A stretch of DNA of 64,000 bases. Origin: Ignavibacteriales bacterium (GTDB lineage: Bacteria; Bacteroidota; Ignavibacteria; UBA10030; UBA6906). Positions 1 to 13,603 of this stretch are shown piece after piece. The stretch lies in assembly GCA_037441705.1 (NCBI GenBank), contig JBBIRR010000014.1, positions 13,229 through 77,228 of the forward strand, in the 5' to 3' direction. Every line of letters begins with the position of its first letter. The first letter of the stretch is position 1. Both the position numbers and the translations under genes were made by a program. The notes beneath the pieces are model-generated. The model was not told the DNA's origin, ran no database searches, and saw nothing but the letters and a program-made list of their open reading frames with translations.

Positions 1-2124
1 ATCGCCAAGATTATCCAGATCCTCAAACTGCCAAACGGCTTGATGAAGATTCTGGTGGATGGAGTTGTGCAGGCGTCCGTCAAGCGGTTCATCCCCAACG
101 GAAAATTCCTGGAGGCTGAGCTGGAGATCCATTTCGCACACGTGACGATGGACTCCGAGCTGGATGCCCTCCTGCGGCACACCTCGAGCCTCTTTGCCGA
201 ATACGTGCACCTGAACCGCAACGTGCCGAGCGAAGTGATGCTTGCCTTCGAAAACACGAAGGATGTTCAGCGGAAAGTCTTCTATATCGCATCGAATATC
301 CTGCAAACCGTCGACATCAAACAAAAAATCCTTGAGCTTACCAACACGCGCGATCAGCTGCACGAGCTCATCCGCATCCTGAACTCTGAAAACGATGTGT
401 TGAAGATCGAGAAAGAGATCGACTCGAAGGTGCATGATAACATCGCGAAGTCGCAGCGGAAGTATTTCATCCAGGAACAGATCCGCATCCTGCAGGACGA
501 GCTGGGCGAAGAAGAATCATCGCCGGAGCTTCTCAAACTGCGCGAGGATATCCGGAAGGCAAAGATGCCGAAGGCCGTAGAAGAGAAAGCGATGGAGGAG
601 TACAACAAACTCCGGAAGACGCCTCCGCTCTCTCCCGAATCGACCGTGATCCGCAGCTACATTGATTGGTTGATCAGCGTGCCGTGGTACAAGCGCACGA
701 AGGACAACTTGAATGTGGAACACGTTCGGGCCATTCTCGATGAAGATCATTTCGGGCTGGAGAAGCCGAAGGAGAGAATCCTCGAACACATTGCGGTGCT
801 GAACCTTGTTCGCGAGATGAAGGGGCAAATCCTCTGCTTCGTCGGCCCGCCCGGGGTGGGGAAGACGTCGCTGGCCAAATCCATTGCACGAGCATTGGGA
901 CGCAAGCTCGTGCGCATTTCGTTAGGGGGCGTGCGAGATGAGGCGGAGATTCGCGGCCACCGCCGCACGTACATCGGCTCGATGCCCGGAAAAATCATCC
1001 AGTCCATGAAGCGCGCCGGCGTCATCAATCCGGTGATGCTGTTAGATGAGGTGGATAAGATGAGCATGGACTTCCGCGGCGATCCGTCGTCGGCCTTGCT
1101 GGAGGTGCTCGACCCGGAGCAGAACTGCACGTTCAACGATCATTATCTCGACGTGGATTACGATCTTTCTCACGTCATGTTCATTACCACGGCCAACGTG
1201 CGCTACCAGATTCCGCTGCCGCTGCAGGATCGGATGGAGATCATCGAGCTTTCCGGCTACCTCCAGCACGACAAACGAGAAATCGCCAAGCGGCATATCA
1301 TCCCGAAGCAACTGCAGGAGCACGGGCTTGCCAAGAGCGGCATCACCATTACCGATCCGGCCATCGACAAGATCATTACGGAATACACCCGCGAAGCCGG
1401 CGTGCGCAACCTCGAGCGGGAGCTTGCCTCGGTCTGTCGCAAGATCGCCAAGGATATTGTCAGCGGCAATCAGAAAAACGGAAAGAAGGACCGCTCGGGC
1501 AGTCAATTCATCGTGACCCCCGAGAAAGTCGAAGAGTACCTCGGCGTTCCGAAGTTCCGCAACCGTCTGCGTGCCGATACCAATCGGGTCGGCTCAGCCA
1601 CGGGCCTCGCGTGGACAAACGTCGGCGGCGACATCCTGCATGTGGACGTCACCGTCATGAGCGGCAAAGAGAAGCTGACGCTGACGGGCCAGCTCGGCGA
1701 TGTGATGAAAGAATCGGCTCAGGCGGCGTTGAGTTATCTGCGCTCGAACGCGAAAGAACTCGGTCTCGATCCGGACTTTTACAAGGACCGGGAGCTGCAT
1801 GTGCATCTGCCCGAAGGCGCGATACCGAAGGACGGACCCTCGGCCGGCATTACCATGGTGATGGCGATGTACTCCGCCATCAGCGGAAAGCCCGCCCGCG
1901 CCGACGTTGCAATGACGGGCGAGATTACCCTGCGCGGCGAAGTGCTTGCCATCGGCGGCCTGAACGAAAAGCTCATCGCCGCGCAACGCAGCGGCATCAC
2001 GACGGTGCTCATCCCGCAGGAGAACGTCAAGGACCTCAGCGAGATCCCCCAGCGCGTGAAAGAGGGCTTGACGATTATTCCGATCAGCAAGATTGAGGAA
2101 GCGTTGCAGCATGTGTTCGCGTGA
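1..2124 (+). CDS. lon: ATP-dependent Lon protease (5'-truncated by window edge)
   Basis: Walker A GPPGVGKT, RRTYIGSMPG, LLDEVDK Walker B, catalytic PKDGPSAG and GGLNEK; frame open to position 1. Confidence 0.97.
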   Translation: MAKIIQILKLPNGLMKILVDGVVQASVKRFIPNGKFLEAELEIHFAHVTMDSELDALLRHTSSLFAEYVHLNRNVPSEVMLAFENTKDVQRKVFYIASNILQTVDIKQKILELTNTRDQLHELIRILNSENDVLKIEKEIDSKVHDNIAKSQRKYFIQEQIRILQDELGEEESSPELLKLREDIRKAKMPKAVEEKAMEEYNKLRKTPPLSPESTVIRSYIDWLISVPWYKRTKDNLNVEHVRAILDEDHFGLEKPKERILEHIAVLNLVREMKGQILCFVGPPGVGKTSLAKSIARALGRKLVRISLGGVRDEAEIRGHRRTYIGSMPGKIIQSMKRAGVINPVMLLDEVDKMSMDFRGDPSSALLEVLDPEQNCTFNDHYLDVDYDLSHVMFITTANVRYQIPLPLQDRMEIIELSGYLQHDKREIAKRHIIPKQLQEHGLAKSGITITDPAIDKIITEYTREAGVRNLERELASVCRKIAKDIVSGNQKNGKKDRSGSQFIVTPEKVEEYLGVPKFRNRLRADTNRVGSATGLAWTNVGGDILHVDVTVMSGKEKLTLTGQLGDVMKESAQAALSYLRSNAKELGLDPDFYKDRELHVHLPEGAIPKDGPSAGITMVMAMYSAISGKPARADVAMTGEITLRGEVLAIGGLNEKLIAAQRSGITTVLIPQENVKDLSEIPQRVKEGLTIIPISKIEEALQHVFA

Positions 2125-4011: not shown

Positions 4012-5049
4012 ATGAAGAACCGTTGGTCTGCTGTCGTGGTGATGATGCTTGCCTTGAGCATTCCGGTGATGGCGGGAGGCATTGCAAAATACGCGGGAGA
4101 GTTCATCTCGCTCGGTGTCGGCGGCAGAGCGCTCGGCATGGGCGGAGCGTTCGTGGCATTGGCAAACGATGTCACGGCCGGATACTGGAACCCCGCCGGC
4201 CTCTCCCACATCAACTATCCGCAGTTGGCTTTGATGCATGATGAGCGCTACGGCAGTTTAGTCAACTATGACTATGGTGCGGTCGCGCTCCCCGTCGGGC
4301 CGACGACAAGCTGGGGCTTGAGTGTCATCCGTCTCGGCGTGGATGATATTCCCGATACACGCAAAGCCGGCATCGACGCCAACGGCAACTACACCGAGGA
4401 CCCCACTCAGTTCACCCGGATCGATCCGAGTCGCGTCACCTACTTCAATGCTGCCGATTGGGCGTTCTACCTGACCTACTCGAAGAAGCAATCGGAGGAT
4501 TTCTCGTACGGAGCGAACCTCAAAATCATTCGTCGCGAACTTGGCGACGCCTCCGCAACCGGCATCGGCCTCGATATCGGCGTGTGGTACAGCATCACCG
4601 ACAAGATTGTTCTCGGCGCAAACTTGCAGGACGTGACGACGACCTTCCTCGCCTGGAATACAGGAACGAACGAACTGATCTCTCCCACGGTGAAGATCGG
4701 CTCGGCGTACTTCATTGAAGCGCTCGGCGGACGGTTTGCGCCGGCTGTGGACTTCGACATCCGCTTTGAGAATAGGAAGTCTGCCTCCACGTTTGCGCTT
4801 GGCCCGGTCAGCTTCGATGCGCATGTCGGTACGGAGTTCCTGTTCAAGGACGCCATGGCCTTCCGCGTCGGCTACAACGATGTGAAGCAAGTGTCGTTCG
4901 GGGCCGGGCTTCGTTTGCCGAAGCTGAACATTGATTACTCCTTTGCGCGTTTCGCACAAGCAGCAGGCGAGCGCCTCGATGATACGCATCGCATCTCTCT
5001 CATGTTCACGCTCGAGGCGGAACAGTTCCGCAGGGTCGAAGGCTACTGA
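4012..5049 (+). CDS. PorV/PorQ-like (FadL superfamily) outer-membrane beta-barrel protein
   Basis: Signal peptide; GVGGRALGMGGAFVALANDVTAGYWNPAGL motif; alternating beta-strands; THRISLMF near C-terminus. Confidence 0.85.
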   Translation: MKNRWSAVVVMMLALSIPVMAGGIAKYAGEFISLGVGGRALGMGGAFVALANDVTAGYWNPAGLSHINYPQLALMHDERYGSLVNYDYGAVALPVGPTTSWGLSVIRLGVDDIPDTRKAGIDANGNYTEDPTQFTRIDPSRVTYFNAADWAFYLTYSKKQSEDFSYGANLKIIRRELGDASATGIGLDIGVWYSITDKIVLGANLQDVTTTFLAWNTGTNELISPTVKIGSAYFIEALGGRFAPAVDFDIRFENRKSASTFALGPVSFDAHVGTEFLFKDAMAFRVGYNDVKQVSFGAGLRLPKLNIDYSFARFAQAAGERLDDTHRISLMFTLEAEQFRRVEGY

Positions 5050-5068
5050 GGTCAGCTTGTCGTTATTC

Positions 5069-5108
5069 AAGCCCCACCCTTCGTGATGGACAGCGGAGGA
5101 TGGGGCTT
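5069..5108. terminator. Hairpin between convergent genes
   Basis: AAGCCCCA...TGGGGCTT inverted repeat followed by T-rich sequence. Confidence 0.55.
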
Positions 5109-5118
5109 TCGCTTTTAT

Positions 5119-5598
5119 TCACTTCCACGCGCCGAGCATCCGACGCACGAGCACAAGCTGACCGAGATGATAGGCGTTGTGGTCGGCTACCAGAAGGGCC
5201 TCACGTAAAAGTGTCTGTCCGGTGCCGTGCGGAATGCGCGCGTAGAGATCGTTCGCCGGATCGGCTACAAGATCAACCATCGCCTGCAAGTCGCGGCGGA
5301 ACTGCTGCACGCTTCGCTCCCACGCGTCGCTCTGCGGAGGCGATGCGGCATGCGGCCAGTAGCCTGCCGGCCACTCCGGCGAGACGTGCTTCGCGTCCCG
5401 GCTGAACTCCAGGATGTCCCACTGTGAAATGCGGAGATGTTCGAGCAACTGCCAGGCGGTGTAGGGGATGCCCTCCAACTTCGTTCCTGCAAGATGCATT
5501 GGAAAATCCCGAACCGCAGACTCGAAACTCACGTGCGCATGCTCTCCTCGCAGAAGTTCCTGCACATGATGCCGCAATGCCTCGTCGTTTGACGACAT
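5119..5598 (-). CDS. DinB-family (DinB_2) protein
   Basis: Metal-binding His pattern LLEHLR ... [11 protein letters not shown]. Confidence 0.85.
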
Positions 5599-5643
5599 GA
5601 TCTCCTCCGGCTTGTTGTGAAAGAATGCTACCGAAACGCAGGC

Positions 5644-5672
5644 AATATACCGAGCTGGAACGGCGGAAACAA
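5644..5672 (-). promoter_or_regulatory. Sigma70-type promoter of the DinB-family gene
   Basis: Minus strand TTGTTT-N17-TATATT. Confidence 0.6.
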
Positions 5673-5744
5673 TCCGAAACGCGGCGGGTGTGGTACATTC
5701 TGTGAATGCAGCTTCTCCCCTGACGCGTCACACTCCACCTTGAT

Positions 5745-7943
5745 TTACTTGGTCGTCAGCTCGACGACGCCATTCCATTCGGGTGGAGGAGGGGTGAGCT
5801 TGAATTGCTTCGATCGCTCCAGATGAAGTTGTGTTGGATAGTCGTGCGGGCGGAGCTGCAGTGCCTCGCTGAATTTCGGAATCGCCTCATCCCACTGTCG
5901 GTTGCGATAGAAGCAAAGGCCTTCCGCGTAGAGCTGAAGGAACCGCTCGAGCGCGGGATCGGATGAACCGTCCCTGCGCTGCATCAGCTCGAACGTCCGC
6001 AGCGGTTCCGAGCGGCCCTTGACGGCAATCAAATCCAACTCTCTCCCCACAATCTGGTGTTTCACGCGATCATACGTTGCCTCGCTCACCATGATGCCGG
6101 TGTGATACACCTTGTTGGCTCCTTCAAGCCGCGACGCGATGTTGACGCCGTCGCCGATGACTGTGTAGTCGAACTTTCCGGTGCCTCCCATGTTTCCCAC
6201 CACAACTTCACCGGTGTTGATGCCGATGCGCACATGCAGCATGGGTTTACCCTCCTCGCGCCACTGCTGCCTGATTGCTGCCAGTTTCTGCTGCATGTCC
6301 AGCGCAGTGCAGCAGGCCCGCAGTGCATGGTCCTCCTGCGGCAGCGGGGCATTCCAAAACGCCACGATGGCATCGCCGAAAAACTTGTCCAGTGTGCCGT
6401 CATGCTCGAGAATGATCGCTGTCATCTCACTGAAGTATTGGTTCAGCAGGTTGACAAGGTCTTCGGACGGTAGTCGTTCAGAGATCGTTGTAAAGCCTTC
6501 GATGTCGGCAAACATGACGGTGAGTTCTTTTCGTTCGCCGCCGAGCTTGAGTTTCTCGGGGTGCTGAATCAACTCCTCCACGACCGTCGGATTGACGTAC
6601 GTGCTGAACATGGACTTGATCATCAGGCGCTGCTTGCGCTCGGTGACGTAATGGTAAGCCGTGCTTGCCACGTACGCGATCACGACTCCCACCATCGGTC
6701 CGACGGCCGCTATCACAATGTTGTATTTGGTAAAGAGAAACACCGCAAGGACACCAACAGCGATCACCTCCACGGCAACGATCAGAAATCCCACCAGCTC
6801 CAGCACGAAATGCCGAAGTCCCCTGCTGCTTCGCAGGGCCGACGTCCCATAAAAGGTCAGGAAGGAAGAGAAAACAATCACGAGAAAGTCAACCGGTACG
6901 GGCAGCCGTCGGAGAAATTCGCCGCGGAGAACGCTCTCGATGACGTTGGCGTGAATCTCGACGCCGAACATGAGATTCTCGCTGTGCAGCGACGGCTGCG
7001 CGAGTGCAACCGGAAACAGGTCATGATCCTCAGGCATCGTGGAGCCGACCAGTACAATCTTGTCCTTGAATGTCCCGTCGTACTTGTAGCCGAAATCGGG
7101 ATCGCTGAACGTGTTGATCTCGTGACCTGTAGCCGCCTCTTCCGTGGTCGTAACGGTTTCGTCGTCCAGCACATCCACAAACTCGATGCGACGGAATGTG
7201 CCGCTGGGGCCGTACAGGTTGATCAGAAACGAGGAAGGGTCATACTTCGGGATGCGCCGGCCGGCGAAGAGAAACGCATCGGCCTGATTCTCCGCGGTGG
7301 TCATAGGAGGAAGGCGGAGGAACTTGTTGAGCACGGCAAAGCTGAATGTTGGAACACGTGTCGTGTCTCGCGTACCATCAGCTGCGGCATAGCCCGTTTC
7401 GCCGTAGGGACTGTAACGCCTGTAGACGCCGTCGGCATCGTTGCGGATATTGACGAGCCCGAGCGCGCTGTCGATGTCGAAAAACCGGTTGCCGTAGGTT
7501 TCCTTTCCCCGCCTGATTTCGAACGCGTGTTGCTGCGTGTCCATCTTGCCCGCCAGTACAACAATGCCCGTCTCGCGAATAGCATCGCGGAGGGCATCAT
7601 CGTTTGCCGCGTCATGAGCATCGGGGCCGGTGAGAATGATATCAATACCCACCGCTTTCGCACCCGCGGTCTTGAGATTGCGAACGAGATGGGCGTAGTA
7701 CGAGCGGGGCCAGGGCCAGCGCGCGGAAAGAGACTTGAATGATTCGCCCGAGACTTCGACAATGACGACATGACTCGAGTCGGGAATGGCGGGATGTTTG
7801 CCTCGCTCGCGAAAGCGGTAATCCAGCGAGGCAAGCTCCAGTCGCCCCACTATCCCCAGCTGCAGCACCTCTTCATGCGCCACCACAATCGTGACAAGAG
7901 CTGCCGCAAGGGCAACAAGGAATTTGCGCACGCGCGGATTCAT
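5745..7943 (-). CDS. CHASE2-domain class III adenylate cyclase with C-terminal TPR-like segment
   Basis: WPWPRSYYA, DADGVYRR, GVEIHANVI (CHASE2); three TM helices; FADIEGFT, DKFFGDAI, YTVIGDGVNIASRLEG. Confidence 0.93.
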   Translation of the reverse strand: MNPRVRKFLVALAAALVTIVVAHEEVLQLGIVGRLELASLDYRFRERGKHPAIPDSSHVVIVEVSGESFKSLSARWPWPRSYYAHLVRNLKTAGAKAVGIDIILTGPDAHDAANDDALRDAIRETGIVVLAGKMDTQQHAFEIRRGKETYGNRFFDIDSALGLVNIRNDADGVYRRYSPYGETGYAAADGTRDTTRVPTFSFAVLNKFLRLPPMTTAENQADAFLFAGRRIPKYDPSSFLINLYGPSGTFRRIEFVDVLDDETVTTTEEAATGHEINTFSDPDFGYKYDGTFKDKIVLVGSTMPEDHDLFPVALAQPSLHSENLMFGVEIHANVIESVLRGEFLRRLPVPVDFLVIVFSSFLTFYGTSALRSSRGLRHFVLELVGFLIVAVEVIAVGVLAVFLFTKYNIVIAAVGPMVGVVIAYVASTAYHYVTERKQRLMIKSMFSTYVNPTVVEELIQHPEKLKLGGERKELTVMFADIEGFTTISERLPSEDLVNLLNQYFSEMTAIILEHDGTLDKFFGDAIVAFWNAPLPQEDHALRACCTALDMQQKLAAIRQQWREEGKPMLHVRIGINTGEVVVGNMGGTGKFDYTVIGDGVNIASRLEGANKVYHTGIMVSEATYDRVKHQIVGRELDLIAVKGRSEPLRTFELMQRRDGSSDPALERFLQLYAEGLCFYRNRQWDEAIPKFSEALQLRPHDYPTQLHLERSKQFKLTPPPPEWNGVVELTTK

Positions 7944-10384
7944 CAGTACTCAAGTCGGTACTTCAAACTCCAGAAATCGTCGTTGGGCGTTCCTTTATTG
8001 TGGAAATAGCTGTACTGAAGCAGAAGGTACATGTTCGGCCGCACGTTCCATTGCGCCGCGTAGTCGAACGTGAACCGGGAAAAATCCCCGAAGGTGGGAC
8101 TGAAGGAAACCGACAGCGCGGCGATATCCTGCGCAAAACTGTATCTGCCGTACGCAAGTACGGTGGAGTAGTTCAGCCGTGTTCGCGGCGAACCTCCGGG
8201 CGAAGGGAATTCATTCACGTTCAATGTATAGCCCAGCGTCGTTTGGAGCGGAACAGCATAACGCGTATTGAGCGTGGCCGAGATGGCGATGTTCTTGACG
8301 TCAAGGTTGCGCCGGGTGAAGTCGTTACGGAACGACGTCGCCATCGTCACAGACGCGACATGGTGCGCGCCATAGGTAAAACGCTGCATCGCATGGAGAT
8401 AGTAGCGATTGGTCTTATCGTTCACCGCGCTGATGGAGTCGGGGCCTGTGATGGTCATGTTGTTGACATTGGCGAAATGCGCGTAGCCGACACTGATGCT
8501 GGGCAGTTCGGGCGGAGGATCGTAGGTGAGGGCAACATTGACCGTGGTGAATCGGGTCGTCGCCGCTTTGGCTTTGCTCGTGTTGTCGTGCAGCCGCTCG
8601 TAGCTGAGCGTGACGAACATGTTCTGTTCCGGCAATCGGAGGCGATCCATCAAGTTGAAGCCGGCCACATCGGTGCGCAGAAAGGTTTGTCCAAAGGACA
8701 TATAATCGCTGCCGCGATGAATGTAGCTTATCTTGAACGCATTATCGAAGTAGTTCAGCGCAAGCCCCACGTCGTACGCAAACGTCGAAAGCTTCTTGAA
8801 CGAAAGAGGCCGAAGATTGTCGTTGACCGTGATGAAGTTCTTGAGCAGGTCTCGCGCGTCTTTGATAGCAGCAGCATCTTTCTTGTACACGCTGTCGATG
8901 TACGCGTCGGTGAAGTTCCCGCTGGAGATATCGCTGTTGTACGCGCTGAACGCCGCCTGCGCGGACAGCTCGATGCGGTTCATGTCAAACTTCGAAACAA
9001 GATCCGTCCCCACCACGAGGTTCTCCTGCGGCCGCGTGCCGAACGTAATAGACCGGACATCATCCTTTGCCTTCAGCCAGGTGAAACCGATCTGATACTT
9101 CTCGCCTGAACCAAAGCTCGGTCGCACGATGAAGATGTCCCGTGCGTACGTGCCGTACGTGTATTTCCCCCACGTGACGGAATCAATGCGGGCGTAAGCC
9201 GCAAAAGGGTCCGCCTGCTGTTCGATACCAAGTTGGTCAACGGGAATGGTTTTCACCAGCGCTCCCTCCACCGCTCGCGTCGTCTGGCCCAGCGTAAGGT
9301 CCACGTTGAACTTACCCAACCGTACGGACGTGTTCAAGCCTCGCACCCGCTTGCCGCTGAGAATCAGATTCGGATAACCCGGATAGCTATCCCCGTACCC
9401 GATGAGCAGCCATTGTGATTCGAGCGACGCGTAATAGCGGTTCTGCGGTTGACGCGAGGGCAGCTCATCGGAGGTGACGAAGACGTTCGCATTGAAGCGC
9501 CAATCGCCCTGGCTGCCGCTGAACCGCGCGCTGCCGCGATTGTACCATGTTCGGATGTTGCTCACCTTCTCGTTACGCGATTCGAGATCGACGCTACCGG
9601 TGTAGACGAACGGCTGAAAGGGCAGGGCAAGCGGCTCGGGTTCGCCGGCGACATAGAACTGCATGCTCGCCTGGCGGTGGAGATTTCCCTGCCGGTTATA
9701 CAGCAGCACCGTCACGCGGTGCCTCCCGGGCTTCAAGGAAAGACCATGATTGCTCGGCACATAAACCAACAGGTCGCCGGTCAGGACGGCGTCGCGCGAC
9801 ACATCCCTGCCGTCAAGAATGATTTGCGTTGCCCGACGTACGACCATCGTGTCTGCACGCAGAAGCGAGACAGAAACAACAACATCGGCCGGGTCGTATG
9901 TCGCGTTCGCCTCCGGACTTAAGAACACAAGCTGCAGATCGTCCTCTCGTTTGATGACAGGGATCTGCAAGGTGCGCGTCGGCGGGCGTTCAAGGGGATC
10001 GGTGCTTTCGCTCAACGGATGCGACTCCAACCCACCCGATCGTTTAGCCAAGACCAAGTAGTATTCCAGATACGGCGGCTGGACAACACCAGGCGGCACG
10101 ACAATGAACGCTGTGTTGCCGCGCAGATCCATCTCCCGCCGGTTCCAGGTCCCTTCGCCAAAGCGGCGATACAGAAAGTACACACGCTCGACGGTTTCAC
10201 CGCGATACAAATCGACGCTGATCGTGAGCGGTGTTTCGCTGACAGCTTCGGTGGGGCTGATCGAAGCGACGAGGGATGAAAGCTGTGCAAGCGTTGGGAA
10301 CGGGAGTGCGAAGCAACATGCAAGAAGGAGGGCGCGGATGCCGGTCGAGACCCTGCCTCCGCGCTCGCAGACGGCAATACTCAT
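7943..10384 (-). CDS. Large outer-membrane beta-barrel protein with N-terminal Ig-like domains
   Basis: Signal peptide (TLA-Q); beta-rich N-domains; long amphipathic strand region; C-terminal beta-signal WSLKYRLEY; overlaps both neighbours. Confidence 0.7.
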   Translation of the reverse strand: MSIAVCERGGRVSTGIRALLLACCFALPFPTLAQLSSLVASISPTEAVSETPLTISVDLYRGETVERVYFLYRRFGEGTWNRREMDLRGNTAFIVVPPGVVQPPYLEYYLVLAKRSGGLESHPLSESTDPLERPPTRTLQIPVIKREDDLQLVFLSPEANATYDPADVVVSVSLLRADTMVVRRATQIILDGRDVSRDAVLTGDLLVYVPSNHGLSLKPGRHRVTVLLYNRQGNLHRQASMQFYVAGEPEPLALPFQPFVYTGSVDLESRNEKVSNIRTWYNRGSARFSGSQGDWRFNANVFVTSDELPSRQPQNRYYASLESQWLLIGYGDSYPGYPNLILSGKRVRGLNTSVRLGKFNVDLTLGQTTRAVEGALVKTIPVDQLGIEQQADPFAAYARIDSVTWGKYTYGTYARDIFIVRPSFGSGEKYQIGFTWLKAKDDVRSITFGTRPQENLVVGTDLVSKFDMNRIELSAQAAFSAYNSDISSGNFTDAYIDSVYKKDAAAIKDARDLLKNFITVNDNLRPLSFKKLSTFAYDVGLALNYFDNAFKISYIHRGSDYMSFGQTFLRTDVAGFNLMDRLRLPEQNMFVTLSYERLHDNTSKAKAATTRFTTVNVALTYDPPPELPSISVGYAHFANVNNMTITGPDSISAVNDKTNRYYLHAMQRFTYGAHHVASVTMATSFRNDFTRRNLDVKNIAISATLNTRYAVPLQTTLGYTLNVNEFPSPGGSPRTRLNYSTVLAYGRYSFAQDIAALSVSFSPTFGDFSRFTFDYAAQWNVRPNMYLLLQYSYFHNKGTPNDDFWSLKYRLEY

Positions 10385-11079
10385 TGTTGCTTGTATTTGA
10401 TCTCGATCCGTTTCTTGTTCCCCTTCCCATCGTCCAGTTCAATGTCGAGGCGGTTCTCCTGCTCGGCAATTTGGGCCGACGCCTCAGCCGCTTGTTTCTC
10501 TTCCGGCGTCGAGGGACGCATCTGCACGTTCCCATCGCGCGTCGAAAGTCCGGTATAGCCCGCGCCGACATCAACCGACTGGGTTGACACCTTGTTCGTC
10601 AGACGAACAAGCCCCTCAAGCACAATGAGCTTGTCCGTCGAATCGGTTGCTGTGAACTGGCCGCTGGTGCCGCGAATCGAAGCCACCGATGTGGGCGACG
10701 TGAAACGGAATTCTTCTCCCGGTTGCTGCTTCTTAATGTGGAACCCGATGACACCGCGTTGCACCTCCGCCGATTTCGAAAAGGCATTGCCTTCCTGCAC
10801 TCCCGCGATCATCACTTCGGACTTTTCCCGCACGCGCAGCATGCTGTTGTCTTTGAATTTGATAACTGCAACGGATTTCTCGCCTGTTCGGACGCGTTCG
10901 CCCGAAGCAAGCACTTCGCCGCGCTGCGCCGGCTGCCAGTCTTTCCCGACCTGCATCCGCATCACATCAAGAATCACTTTACTGATCAGCGCGATAGCCG
11001 TATCGCCCGCGGGCGGCGCTGCGCCCAGAGCAAGCATGCCGCTCATCAACAGAAGTATCGAAACACGTGTGGGTTTCAT
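10381..11079 (-). CDS. Exported FecR-domain protein
   Basis: VRTGEKSVAVIKFKDNSMLRVREKS, FTSPTSVASIRGT, VLEGLV; N-terminal signal peptide. Confidence 0.88.
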   Translation of the reverse strand: MKPTRVSILLLMSGMLALGAAPPAGDTAIALISKVILDVMRMQVGKDWQPAQRGEVLASGERVRTGEKSVAVIKFKDNSMLRVREKSEVMIAGVQEGNAFSKSAEVQRGVIGFHIKKQQPGEEFRFTSPTSVASIRGTSGQFTATDSTDKLIVLEGLVRLTNKVSTQSVDVGAGYTGLSTRDGNVQMRPSTPEEKQAAEASAQIAEQENRLDIELDDGKGNKKRIEIKYKQQ

Positions 11080-11099
11080 CGCAACTCCCCTTTCTGAGA

Positions 11100-12161
11100 C
11101 TATTCCAGATTCACTGCGCCGACCGCCTCCGGATTCGATCGGATGTCATTCAGCACCCGCAGCAATTCCGTCAACGAGATCGGCGATCCGTTCAAGCGAT
11201 ACGTACCGGTGGGGGAGAGATTTTGCGCACGAATTTGATCGAAGATGGGCCTGTACACCGGCGGAAGAGAGCGCTCAAGGTCTTGCAGCAACCAGGCCAA
11301 CGATGTCGAACGCGTCGTGGAGATGGTGAACGAACGGAGAGCGCTGCGCTGCTCGAGGTTTGTGCCCCCGGCCGCACCGACAAGGCCGGTTACGTACCAC
11401 ACGTAGGTCTTGCCCGGCTGCAAGACGCGTGCGTTGGTCGGATAACGCAGCGATCGTGTTTCGACGGTTGCCGTGTGATGCGGCGTGCCGGTTGCCGTTT
11501 CTTCGAGGCTCCGTTGTCCGGGAAGTTTTTCGAAGATGGCGATCGTTGCCCGCGGTCCATCGTACTGCCACTCGAACAGCGGGAATTCTTCCGTCAGCAC
11601 CTCGCCATCCTGCGGCGCGAGCAGAACAGGTGTGGAAGGGTTCGTCAGGACAAACGTGAATTGCTTCGTGTCGGTGTCGGGGCCGTTGACTTCACGGACA
11701 TTCACGGTAAAGATGTAGCTGCCGGCCGGCATCGAACCGCTCGGCAAAGCGATCTCCAAGAACTTTGCTTTTGCATCGTTGTTGAAGATGTAAGTCTCTT
11801 GCGCTATCCCACGCCCTCGGCCTAACTCCAGGTTGGTCACCGTGCGTGTGCGCTCGATGGTGAACGGAACGGAAATGAAACGAGCCGCGTTCTCATAGCG
11901 CTCGCCATTGGCTAACAGAACATCGAGGTTGATCGTCATAACCGCCTGCACGGTTCGTGGAGCGGTCATCGTAATCGTGAACAGCCACTTCGGTGTGGTG
12001 GAGTTCAGATAGTCCAGGTCGTTGATCGTCAGGGAATTGACCGGAGCTGTAACCGTGGTGACCGTGATTTGCGCCTGGGTGGCTACCGGAAGGCAGATGA
12101 GCGGAACACTAAGCAGCAGGTATCGCCCCCCATTGCATACGCCTCGAAGGAATCGCTTCAT
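11100..12161 (-). CDS. Secreted hypothetical protein with Ig/fn3-like domains
   Basis: ATG 12161 after purine-rich SD; signal peptide TQA-Q; PVLLAPQDG...PLFEW...LQPGKTYVWYV fn3-like pattern. Confidence 0.7.
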   Translation of the reverse strand: MKRFLRGVCNGGRYLLLSVPLICLPVATQAQITVTTVTAPVNSLTINDLDYLNSTTPKWLFTITMTAPRTVQAVMTINLDVLLANGERYENAARFISVPFTIERTRTVTNLELGRGRGIAQETYIFNNDAKAKFLEIALPSGSMPAGSYIFTVNVREVNGPDTDTKQFTFVLTNPSTPVLLAPQDGEVLTEEFPLFEWQYDGPRATIAIFEKLPGQRSLEETATGTPHHTATVETRSLRYPTNARVLQPGKTYVWYVTGLVGAAGGTNLEQRSALRSFTISTTRSTSLAWLLQDLERSLPPVYRPIFDQIRAQNLSPTGTYRLNGSPISLTELLRVLNDIRSNPEAVGAVNLE

Positions 12162-12298
12162 GAGTTTCCCCTTCCTGACTTGTGTATGTACAGACAACAT
12201 TCCCCTGCGGGAAATGATAACAAAAACTGCGATTGATAGCAACAAGAACTATCCCGTTCCGGTGGAACAGCGAAGGCAGCACCCCCGCGAAGGCTCAA

Positions 12299-13603
12299 TC
12301 AAAAGTTCCGTATGTCGTTGTACACGGCAAACGCCATGAAGACCAACAGCAGCACGAACCCTGTGCGCTGGATCGCCAGTTTGAGCTTTGTCGGAAGCTC
12401 GCGTCCGATGATACCTTCGACGATCAGGAAGATCAGATGCCCGCCATCGAGGGCGGGGATGGGAAGGATATTGAGAATCGCGAGGCTGACGCTCAGCAAG
12501 CCCATGAACTGAAGATACACTTCGATGCCGACGTCGAACGATTCTTTCGCAAACTTGCCGATGCGGATAGGCCCGGCGAGCGATTCGGAGAAGGATACCT
12601 TACCGCGTATCAGACTGATGACACCCGAGATGGTGCCGGTGACAACCTGCTGAACCTCTCGGGCTCCCTGGCCGATGGCCTCAAACACGGAGTATTCGGT
12701 CTTCTTCACCGGTCCGGCATAGCCCGCCGAGAATTCTATTCCGATCAATCCCTTTTCTGTGGGGGTGATGGTTCCGGAAAGCACGCTGTCGCCGCGCTTC
12801 CATTCGATGACCAGCGGCTTGCCTGCGTTGCTCTTGATCGTCTCGACGATCCGAATGGCCTGCACGGGGCGGCCGGCAATCGTCAGAATGCTGTCGAGCG
12901 GTCGGATGCCGAGCTGCTCGGCCGGCATCCCCGCTGTGACTTTCTTGACAACGACGACGAAGTGCGCAGGAAGGAGGCCAAAGTCGGACTCCGCCTTCGC
13001 GTCCATCGGCGCGCCGTGGGAATGCACCTGCACCGTGCGCCCGTTTCGTTCGACGAGAAAGCGGAGGTCGCTGCCAATGTTCTCCAGATAAATTGCGCGA
13101 CGCAGCGCGTCCCAGTCGGCAACGGGTTTGTCGTTGACGCTCAACACCCTGTCTCCCTTCTTGAACCCCGCCGAGTCGGCAACGCTGCCCTCGAAGACAA
13201 ACCCGACCTCCGTCGTGTCGTACACGGTGCGGCCGTGAGCATAGGCCAGCGCGCTGTAGATGCCCAACGCTAACAGGACGTTCATGATCACTCCGGCAGA
13301 AATCACGATGATGCGCTGCCAGATGGGTTTGGATCGGAATTCCCACGGCTGCGGCGGCCGGTTGATGAAGTCCGTATCGAAGCTTTCGTCAATCATCCCC
13401 GCGATCTTCACATATCCGCCGAAGGGAATCCAGGAGATGCAGTAATCCGTGTCGCCGATCTTCTTGCCGAACGCACGCGGCGGAAAGCCGATGGAGAACA
13501 CATCCACACGCATGCCGAAGAGTTTTGCAGCGATGAAGTGGCCGAACTCGTGCACAAACACCAACACGCTGAGGATCACGATCGTGGAGATCAAATAGTC
13601 CAT
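12299..13603 (-). CDS. rseP: RIP metalloprotease RseP
   Basis: HEFGH, PFGGYVKIAG, two PDZ domains, NILPIPALDGGH; adjacent to dxr. Confidence 0.95.
   Translation of the reverse strand: MDYLISTIVILSVLVFVHEFGHFIAAKLFGMRVDVFSIGFPPRAFGKKIGDTDYCISWIPFGGYVKIAGMIDESFDTDFINRPPQPWEFRSKPIWQRIIVISAGVIMNVLLALGIYSALAYAHGRTVYDTTEVGFVFEGSVADSAGFKKGDRVLSVNDKPVADWDALRRAIYLENIGSDLRFLVERNGRTVQVHSHGAPMDAKAESDFGLLPAHFVVVVKKVTAGMPAEQLGIRPLDSILTIAGRPVQAIRIVETIKSNAGKPLVIEWKRGDSVLSGTITPTEKGLIGIEFSAGYAGPVKKTEYSVFEAIGQGAREVQQVVTGTISGVISLIRGKVSFSESLAGPIRIGKFAKESFDVGIEVYLQFMGLLSVSLAILNILPIPALDGGHLIFLIVEGIIGRELPTKLKLAIQRTGFVLLLVFMAFAVYNDIRNF

Follow-up and report, generated by a model that had tools for sequence, protein, structure and literature searches.

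A four-gene unit of Ignavibacteria predicted to link an outer-membrane barrel to a CHASE2 adenylate cyclase

The window analysed here, the whole 64,000-nucleotide stretch of DNA from an Ignavibacteriales bacterium, carries on its minus strand, at positions 5745-12161, a run of four head-to-tail open reading frames (ORFs), denoted G1, G2, G3 and G4 in their order along the run. ORF prediction and translation place G1 at 11100-12161 (353 amino acids (aa) from the ATG at 12161), G2 at 10381-11079 (232 aa), G3 at 7943-10384 (813 aa) and G4 at 5745-7943 (732 aa), all on the minus strand. On the same strand, the stop codon of G2 and the start codon of G3 overlap in the tetranucleotide ATGA (10381-10384), and the stop codon of G3 and the start codon of G4 overlap in TGATG (7941-7945); G1 and G2 are separated by a gap of 20 base pairs (bp) that includes a purine-rich stretch. 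An earlier note on this DNA had claimed four co-oriented genes with these two overlaps, and both the ORFs and the overlaps read exactly as it described them. We interpret the four genes as one tightly coupled operon that probably lets events at the outer membrane control the synthesis of cyclic AMP (cAMP).

The four genes and their predicted products

By its sequence, G4 is an inner-membrane class III adenylate cyclase with a CHASE2 domain and a conserved C-terminal region resembling tetratricopeptide repeats (TPRs). In Pfam, it matches CHASE2 (PF05226) over residues 25-362, with an E-value of 2.8e-49 and a score of 168.4 bits (cut-off 26.3), and Guanylate_cyc (PF00211), with an E-value of 5.9e-27 and 94.9 bits (cut-off 21.9); the C-terminal TPR match lies below the Pfam cut-off, and the C-terminus is conserved across orthologues. 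Because one hydrophobic segment (about residues 8-27) precedes CHASE2 and three follow it (347-365, 386-404 and 409-427), CHASE2 is predicted to be periplasmic and the catalytic domain cytoplasmic. The periplasmic part, as delimited by the Pfam match and the hydrophobic segments, spans residues 28-348 (minus strand, 6900-7862), and the catalytic domain, as delimited by Pfam, the alignment and the solved relatives, spans residues 472-652 (minus strand, 5988-6530). Across 43 aligned orthologues, residues D480, K520, D524, T594, N601 and R605 do not vary, which bears out the description of G4 in the earlier note as a CHASE2 class III cyclase with intact catalytic motifs. We presume that the two aspartates bind metal, that the Lys and Thr specify the substrate, a Lys/Thr pair marking the ATP-specific subclass IIIb, and that the Asn and Arg act at the transition state. 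The closest solved relatives are bacterial adenylate cyclases, the first of them CyaB of P. aeruginosa (3r5g, E 1.6e-60); when the sequences of the PDB were searched with the G4 alignment (hmmsearch), the matches covered only residues 436-670, and none fell on the CHASE2 part.

At two loci of family f20 (L087 and L093), the cyclase adjacent to G3 is encoded in a longer open frame, of 856-937 aa, and matches G4 in two separate pieces. Between CHASE2 and the catalytic domain, these proteins may contain an additional stretch or one that has diverged strongly.

G3 has no match in Pfam or NCBIfam. Its AlphaFold2 model (mean predicted local distance difference test score, pLDDT, 85.4; predicted template modelling score, pTM, 0.58) indicates an outer-membrane protein of an uncharacterised family, composed of a signal peptide, two periplasmic immunoglobulin (Ig)-like domains and a large beta-barrel. 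The sequence starts with one signal-peptide-like hydrophobic segment and ends in YRLEY, with an aromatic residue last. In the model, two N-terminal beta-sandwich domains (residues 39-144 and 153-245, assigned with DSSP; residues 39-245 correspond to 9650-10270 of the minus strand) are followed by the barrel (residues 260-813; minus strand, 7946-9607), in which about 26 strands were counted from the DSSP string, the final strand ending at residue 812 of 813. The best Foldseek match is MtrB (6r2q_B, E 2.2e-10), with the ushers FimD and PapC also among the matches, and in VIA-align MtrB reaches Z 20.1 with a root-mean-square deviation of 4.3 and 441 residues aligned over 258-813, the second match having Z 17.8. 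The top structural matches are all outer-membrane barrels and cover the barrel only. One side of the barrel has turns of 2-7 residues and the other has long loops; because this is the usual outer-membrane topology, the Ig-like domains are predicted to lie in the periplasm. The model and the match to MtrB agree with the earlier description of G3 as an 813-aa barrel with N-terminal Ig domains. Among 8000 scored candidates, 436 homologues of G3 were found at E <= 1e-3, all unnamed or annotated as 'hypothetical'; a profile search recovered 1717 cluster representatives at E <= 1e-3, and a search of the ESM Atlas returned unnamed Bacteroidota clusters only.

G2 consists of a signal peptide, a FecR domain, a charged linker and a short C-terminal tail that is conserved in an alignment of 43 sequences. 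The FecR domain (PF04773; residues 62-159; minus strand, 10603-10896) was identified by Pfam with 44.3 bits (cut-off 24). The signal peptide is the single hydrophobic segment of the protein, and G2 has neither an anti-sigma domain nor a membrane anchor beyond the signal peptide, no Cys lipobox and indeed no cysteine. Its nearest NCBIfam matches are FecR-domain surface adhesins of Leptospira, all under their cut-offs, and a sequence search of solved structures with the G2-family alignment gave a single marginal match, to MtxA (E 0.063). No fused form turned up when G2-like proteins of more than 407 aa were sought, although this negative is a weak one.

G1, likewise without a match in Pfam or NCBIfam, is predicted to be an exported protein of an uncharacterised family with two domains of the Ig or fibronectin type III (FN3) kind. 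It begins with one signal-peptide-like hydrophobic segment, and its AlphaFold2 model (pLDDT 84.6) has two beta-sandwich domains (residues 33-172 and 179-280, approximately) followed by a C-terminal domain made of helices (289-342). Foldseek recovered tandem Ig-like domains, and VIA-align of residues 174-283 an FN3-like fold (Z 10.8, root-mean-square deviation 2.5, 97 residues aligned). The 137 homologues found are all unnamed or 'hypothetical', and no homology between G1 and the N-terminal domains of G3 was detectable (hhalign, 15%). Neither G1 nor G2 contains a CXXCH motif, and no cysteine occurs in the two proteins outside the signal peptide of G1. Of the previous claim that G1 is a secreted Ig protein, export across the inner membrane and the Ig/FN3-like build are supported by the signal peptide and the model, but secretion beyond the periplasm is not. 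The two protein families that had been called uncharacterised, those of G1 and G3, are so with respect to both Pfam and NCBIfam.

Conservation of the four-gene order

The surroundings of G3 were compared in one genome per species, yielding 80 loci, all from metagenome-assembled genomes and labelled variously Ignavibacteria, Bacteroidota, Chlorobi or Chitinophagales. At the loci with enough flanking DNA to be testable, G4 lies directly downstream of G3 in every case (67/67), and upstream of G3, G2 is present at 71 of 72 and G1 at 65 of 67. One of the two loci missing G1 (L060) has a diverged G1 homologue in the same place (hhalign probability 96.8%). The other (L047) has divergent genes upstream of G3, and rseP, G1 and G2 lie together in that genome (L099:1628-4852), about 255 kilobases (kb) from G3 and G4, with no gene lost.

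The same association holds at the level of the phylum. In an evenly drawn sample of 401 genomes, G3 was detected in 135 and a G4-like protein, at the threshold of E <= 1e-60, in 137. Among the 122 genomes with a listed G3 position, the G4 match adjoins G3 downstream and on the same strand in 111; in one of the other 11 (G292), G3 and G4 are on different contigs. Tallied by family, G3 and G4 agree in most of the families listed (for instance, 17/17, 51/61, 0/87, 0/21 and 0/12 for both) and differ in a few, among them f7, with 16 (G3) versus 19 (G4) of 22 genomes, and f23, with 3 versus 0 of 3. In distant families (loci L085, L086 and L090; G3 about 26% identical, guanine-plus-cytosine content 37-54%), the same four-gene order is found between other flanking genes, the second gene matching Pfam FecR and the first being homologous to G1 (96.6%). 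The conserved gene order on which the earlier note had made its proposal depend was found, and it extends well outside Ignavibacteria.

It could be argued that the four genes are not a functional unit, being merely neighbours by descent, and that the cyclase senses alone through its CHASE2 domain. Within Ignavibacteria, the flanking housekeeping genes are also conserved at most loci: rseP is kept at 55 of 63 testable loci and a 345-aa gene on the other side at 42 of 52. For this reason, part of the synteny is plain inheritance, which counts against the functional reading, and the existence of CHASE2 cyclase paralogues in other gene contexts is also in line with a cyclase that works alone. Given the conserved flanks of the Ignavibacteria, the distant loci are the stronger argument for a functional unit, since there the four-gene order persists with different flanks at about 26% identity in G3. 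Moreover, start and stop codons overlap at two of the junctions, G3 and G4 stay together where they have parted from G1 and G2, and the presence or absence of G3 and G4 largely coincides at the family level. Neighbourhood by descent alone thus appears very improbable.

Pairwise distances among the four proteins correlate with r of 0.87-0.94, compared to 0.70-0.79 against RseP (43 loci), and the G1-G3 pair tops all others (r 0.94, partial r 0.87); because related sequences are dependent and the proteins saturate differently, these correlations are weak, non-independent evidence.

Upstream of G1 and on the same strand lie rseP (12299-13603), which encodes an M50 peptidase with PDZ domains, and dxr. 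The 137-bp spacer between rseP and G1 (minus strand, 12162-12298) holds a sigma-70-like match (12242-12214), the sole one in a scan of 8 kb; with 3.2 matches expected, this single one does not exceed chance, and the models of the scan do not cover promoters of Bacteroidota. A terminator scan around the unit gave no signal above chance, and Rfam gave no match in 4500-13000 at E <= 0.1. Downstream of G4, at a distance of 146 bp and on the same strand, a 159-aa protein of the DinB_2 family is encoded at 5119-5598; the corresponding space is just 70-80 bp in many related loci, for which reason this gene is probably outside the unit. The 345-aa gene (4012-5049, plus strand), which has weak PorP/SprF and UPF0164 matches, is convergent to the unit. 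The neighbours scanned were Lon, DnaX, the 345-aa gene product, the DinB_2 protein, RseP, Dxr, a TPR protein and an OMP_b-brl protein; among these, no extracytoplasmic function (ECF) sigma factor (sigma-70 regions 2 and 4), Plug or TonB_dep_Rec match was found, in agreement with the absence of an adjacent ECF sigma or TonB-dependent receptor gene noted earlier. The four-gene unit itself includes no tonB/exbBD or substrate-utilisation gene, no phosphodiesterase gene and no separate TPR gene.

Related systems and other possible roles of the barrel

The sections of two reports on Sinorhizobium meliloti on which we draw here (PMC7529298; PMC13001267) describe an outer-membrane protein, NsrA, which, together with the CHASE2 cyclases CyaK and CyaD1/D2, is needed to perceive a proteinaceous plant signal, and place the barrel of NsrA at residues 600-1200. 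According to the same sections, both NsrA and CyaK are required for perceiving the external protein signal (PMC7529298), and the cAMP produced acts on a Crp-type regulator (PMC13001267). To the extent of these sections, the connection of an outer-membrane barrel with a CHASE2 cyclase that the earlier note had given as established is a real one. The corresponding locus on pSymB was located through a tblastn match to G4. There, an ORF for a CHASE2 cyclase begins within a 1219-aa ORF, which was identified as NsrA by position and length in an unannotated record; ahead of its C-terminal part, this putative NsrA carries a FecR domain at residues 85-179 and TPRs at 397-606. G2 matches the FecR domain of this putative NsrA ORF with a BLASTP E-value of 4e-10 and 25% identity.

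The two systems are alike in that the barrel gene lies immediately upstream of the gene for a CHASE2 class III cyclase, with an overlapping start, in that a FecR domain is present, on a separate protein here and fused to the barrel in NsrA, and in that the output predicted here, cAMP, is that of the Sinorhizobium system. They differ in that NsrA is one polypeptide with the order FecR-TPR-barrel, whereas here FecR (G2) and barrel (G3) are encoded by separate, overlapping genes; the barrel here has two Ig-like domains, there is a fourth conserved gene, G1, and the host belongs to Bacteroidota rather than Alphaproteobacteria. Because NsrA itself carries a FecR domain, the involvement of such a domain, though here on a separate protein, is common with a known system. 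Of the 'distinct split-component system' proposed in the earlier note, the split into separate FecR and barrel genes stands, but the module is not wholly distinct.

Two further cases point in the same direction. In Campylobacterota, the genes for CHASE2 cyclases lie in clusters that also encode a phosphodiesterase, a TPR protein and an outer-membrane protein with a FecR domain, and the authors interpret the cluster as one pathway (PMC9239204, as far as the sections drawn on go); compared by this description, the cluster shares with the unit the combination of a CHASE2 cyclase and a FecR-domain outer-membrane protein but includes a phosphodiesterase and a TPR protein, neither of which is encoded in the unit. 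In the 'BiofilmReg' operon of Burkholderia and its counterpart in P. aeruginosa, a LysM-FecR protein is encoded beside a CHASE2 histidine kinase (PMC5192318). An exported FecR-domain protein beside a CHASE2 sensor is thus common to this operon and the unit, but there the CHASE2 sensor is of the histidine kinase type, LysM is part of the FecR protein, and the operon, in the part of that report on which we draw, has no outer-membrane barrel gene. Given the Sinorhizobium, Campylobacterota and Burkholderia cases, to the extent that the cited sections describe them, the general arrangement of a CHASE2 sensor next to an envelope partner with a FecR domain is already known. What appears to be new, judging by sequence comparison, is the split of FecR and barrel into separate genes, the large Ig-bearing barrel, for which no sequence relation to NsrA was detected, the presence of G1 and the Bacteroidota host; a description of this four-gene module was not found in the literature searched, a search whose coverage leaves out most subscription journals.

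FecR-type anti-sigma factors are anchored in the membrane, have their anti-sigma domain at the cytoplasmic N-terminus and are encoded next to an ECF sigma factor and a TonB-dependent receptor. The FecA-FecR-FecI system resembles the proposed unit in that a FecR-domain protein carries the signal of an outer-membrane barrel on to a step at the inner membrane; in contrast, G2 has no cytoplasmic anti-sigma domain or anchor, neither an ECF sigma factor nor a TonB-dependent receptor is encoded nearby, and the output is a cyclase. We considered and rejected the assignment of G2 to the FecR-type anti-sigma factors, as it consists of a signal peptide and FecR only, with no ECF sigma or TonB-dependent receptor gene among the neighbours scanned.

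TonB-dependent transporters contain an N-terminal plug domain and a TonB box inside a 22-strand barrel. G3 was rejected as a member of this class because it has no Plug or TonB_dep_Rec match, its N-terminus is formed by beta-sandwiches and its barrel has about 26 strands. The barrel nevertheless resembles TonB-dependent transporters, OccK, chitoporin and AlgE at Z of about 16-18 (VIA-align), so that sensing could be coupled to uptake: G3 would be a channel or transporter that admits a solute or polymer fragment, and G1, G2 or both would present this ligand to CHASE2, the barrel supplying the ligand with no conformational relay. The long loops of G3 are conserved as much as its strands (mean 0.55 each, 71 sequences), as would be the case at a binding or constriction site, although that side is normally variable in ordinary outer-membrane proteins; the most conserved decamers, residues 311-320 and 518-527 (minus strand, about 9425-9454 and 8804-8833), sit in loops. 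The FN3-like domains of G1 resemble modules of glycoside hydrolases, and the G3 relatives that lack a neighbouring cyclase (see below) would fit an independent transport role. G3, however, has neither a plug domain nor a TonB box family match nor a match to a transporter family, the unit has no tonB/exbBD or substrate-utilisation gene, and in NsrA the FecR domain is covalently joined to the barrel; that the FecR domain of FecR-type systems is a known protein-protein relay also counts against a mere supply of ligand. We therefore regard uptake-coupled sensing as unlikely, though worth keeping in view. The conserved loops belong to the side of the barrel for which an outward or lumenal orientation is predicted.

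In size and shape, the best structural match to the G3 barrel is MtrB (6r2q; 441 of 649 residues aligned), at a sequence identity of 11%; MtrB/PioB porin-cytochrome sheaths combine a 26-strand barrel with an adjacent multihaem cytochrome, and no multihaem partner is present here, as G1 and G2 are devoid of CXXCH. A porin-cytochrome system of the MtrB/PioB type was rejected on this ground despite the similar fold, and the fold shared with MtrB says nothing on the function of G3. In ushers of the chaperone-usher pathway, the barrel has 24 strands, a plug domain is inserted and further domains follow at the C-terminus; G3 was rejected as an usher as well, having no inserted sandwich domain and a model that stops at the last barrel strand. 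A looser version of these comparisons would have G3 act as a sheath or usher-like pore that exposes or assembles G1 at the cell surface, as MtrB does for MtrA/MtrC, with the cyclase monitoring the assembly of G1 or controlled by it, which would amount to surface or contact sensing. MtrB is the best structural match, with the longest aligned stretch by far, FimD and PapC are among the Foldseek matches, G1 is made of adhesin-like domains, the G1-G3 distance correlation, weak as such evidence is, is the highest, and the below-cut-off NCBIfam neighbours of G2 are surface adhesins. The lack in G3 of the plug and C-terminal domains of ushers and the lack of CXXCH in G1 and G2 argue against such a role, as do the helical C-terminus of G1, which is unlike a beta-sandwich secretion domain, and the fact that export of G1 is implied only as far as the periplasm. 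A display or assembly function is, in our view, improbable.

An equally improbable but far-reaching variant is that G3 is an MtrB-like 26-strand sheath through which G1 or the conserved tail of G2 passes to the surface, forming a continuous protein link from the surface to CHASE2. If this were true, the link would turn contact or an external macromolecular ligand directly into cAMP, as a signalling counterpart of the porin-cytochrome 'wire', and CHASE2 domains would generally sense partner proteins rather than small ligands.

A proposed route from the outer membrane to cAMP

The reading that we prefer, to which we assign a probability of roughly 0.55, the operon included, is a trans-envelope relay that runs from G3 to the CHASE2 domain of G4 by way of G2, which G1 would assist, and ends in cAMP. 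G3 would be an outer-membrane barrel of about 26 strands with two Ig-like domains hanging into the periplasm, G2 a periplasmic FecR-domain protein, G1 a tandem Ig/FN3 protein that is periplasmic or associated with the outer membrane, and G4 an inner-membrane adenylate cyclase with CHASE2 facing the periplasm; G2 and G3 would jointly fill the role that NsrA fills as one protein for the Sinorhizobium CHASE2 cyclases. We infer the contacts between the proteins, the direction of signalling, the signal and the output as follows. The barrel could be triggered when its long, conserved loops bind a ligand or when the outer membrane is disturbed; the signal would be passed to G2, possibly with G1, and from there to CHASE2, and the class III catalytic dimer in the cytoplasm would change its activity in response. 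The cAMP would then act on regulators that bind cyclic nucleotide monophosphates (cNMPs) and are encoded elsewhere in the genome. In the source genome, eight cNMP_binding matches are found in seven frames, none of them on the contig of the window.

Several observations weigh against such a relay. Ten of the 122 genomes, in families f24 and f36, have a relative of G3 with no neighbouring cyclase, and at all three such loci that were read this stand-alone G3 follows a HIT-family gene and a small TPR-like gene (111-130 aa). Of five genomes of this kind that were checked, four have a CHASE2 protein elsewhere and one, 98% complete, has none. Comparison of the G3 profile with the single NsrA ORF sequence of pSymB gave an hhalign probability of 0.2%, with no sequence similarity detected, so that the likeness to NsrA may be convergent or just formal. 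The periplasmic TPR region of NsrA has no counterpart, as no Pfam TPR match was found in G1-G3, and the only TPR-like region is the C-terminus of G4. Related genomes encode CHASE2 cyclase paralogues with neither FecR nor G3 beside them. Finally, with a pTM of 0.58, the placement of the domains of G3 relative to each other in the model is uncertain.

The stand-alone relatives of G3 measure 884-915 aa and come from two families (L088:7536-11032, L089:7364-10923 and L094:7540-11139). No FecR or CHASE2 gene lies near them in the three loci read, and at L088 a GGDEF gene is located 1 kb upstream.

Second CHASE2 cyclases of related genomes are found behind another three-gene set (L100:2829-9621, L101:7654-14422 and L102:2958-9827), which encodes an unknown protein of about 390 aa, a CsgG-family lipoprotein (PF03783, E about 1e-13 to 1e-14) and a protein of 830-860 aa that has weak CARDB and TPR matches and is unrelated to G3. 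By its sequence, this set appears to provide cyclases of the same kind with a different group of outer-membrane accessory proteins. Because these second cyclases follow quite different genes, FecR appears to travel with the G3 barrel and not with CHASE2 as such.

The source genome encodes a second CHASE2 protein (888 aa; C23:17197-19863, minus strand; L083:7198-9864), which is fused to a sigma-54 activator AAA+ domain. Downstream of its gene, on the same strand and reaching to L083:2238, there are two unknown lipoprotein-like genes, a gene whose 666-aa product has a weak transglutaminase-core match and one for an exported protein of 236 aa; in the latter, the first approximately 45 mature residues are similar to the N-terminal portion of G2-family proteins (hhalign, 87%). 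The only other class III cyclase domains of this genome are two that occur in neighbouring frames of 693 and 723 aa (C28:48603-51164, minus strand).

The unit bears on what CHASE2 domains sense, a question that, to our knowledge, has stood from the first description of the domain onwards; the only studied case of an outer-membrane partner for CHASE2 that we know of is NsrA/CyaK in a plant symbiont. Together with the CsgG-linked paralogues, the unit suggests that CHASE2 cyclases are routinely wired to differing outer-membrane proteins. Being compact, widespread and naturally split into separate proteins, it is suited to reconstitution, so that the way in which signals cross the periplasm to a second-messenger enzyme could become directly testable.

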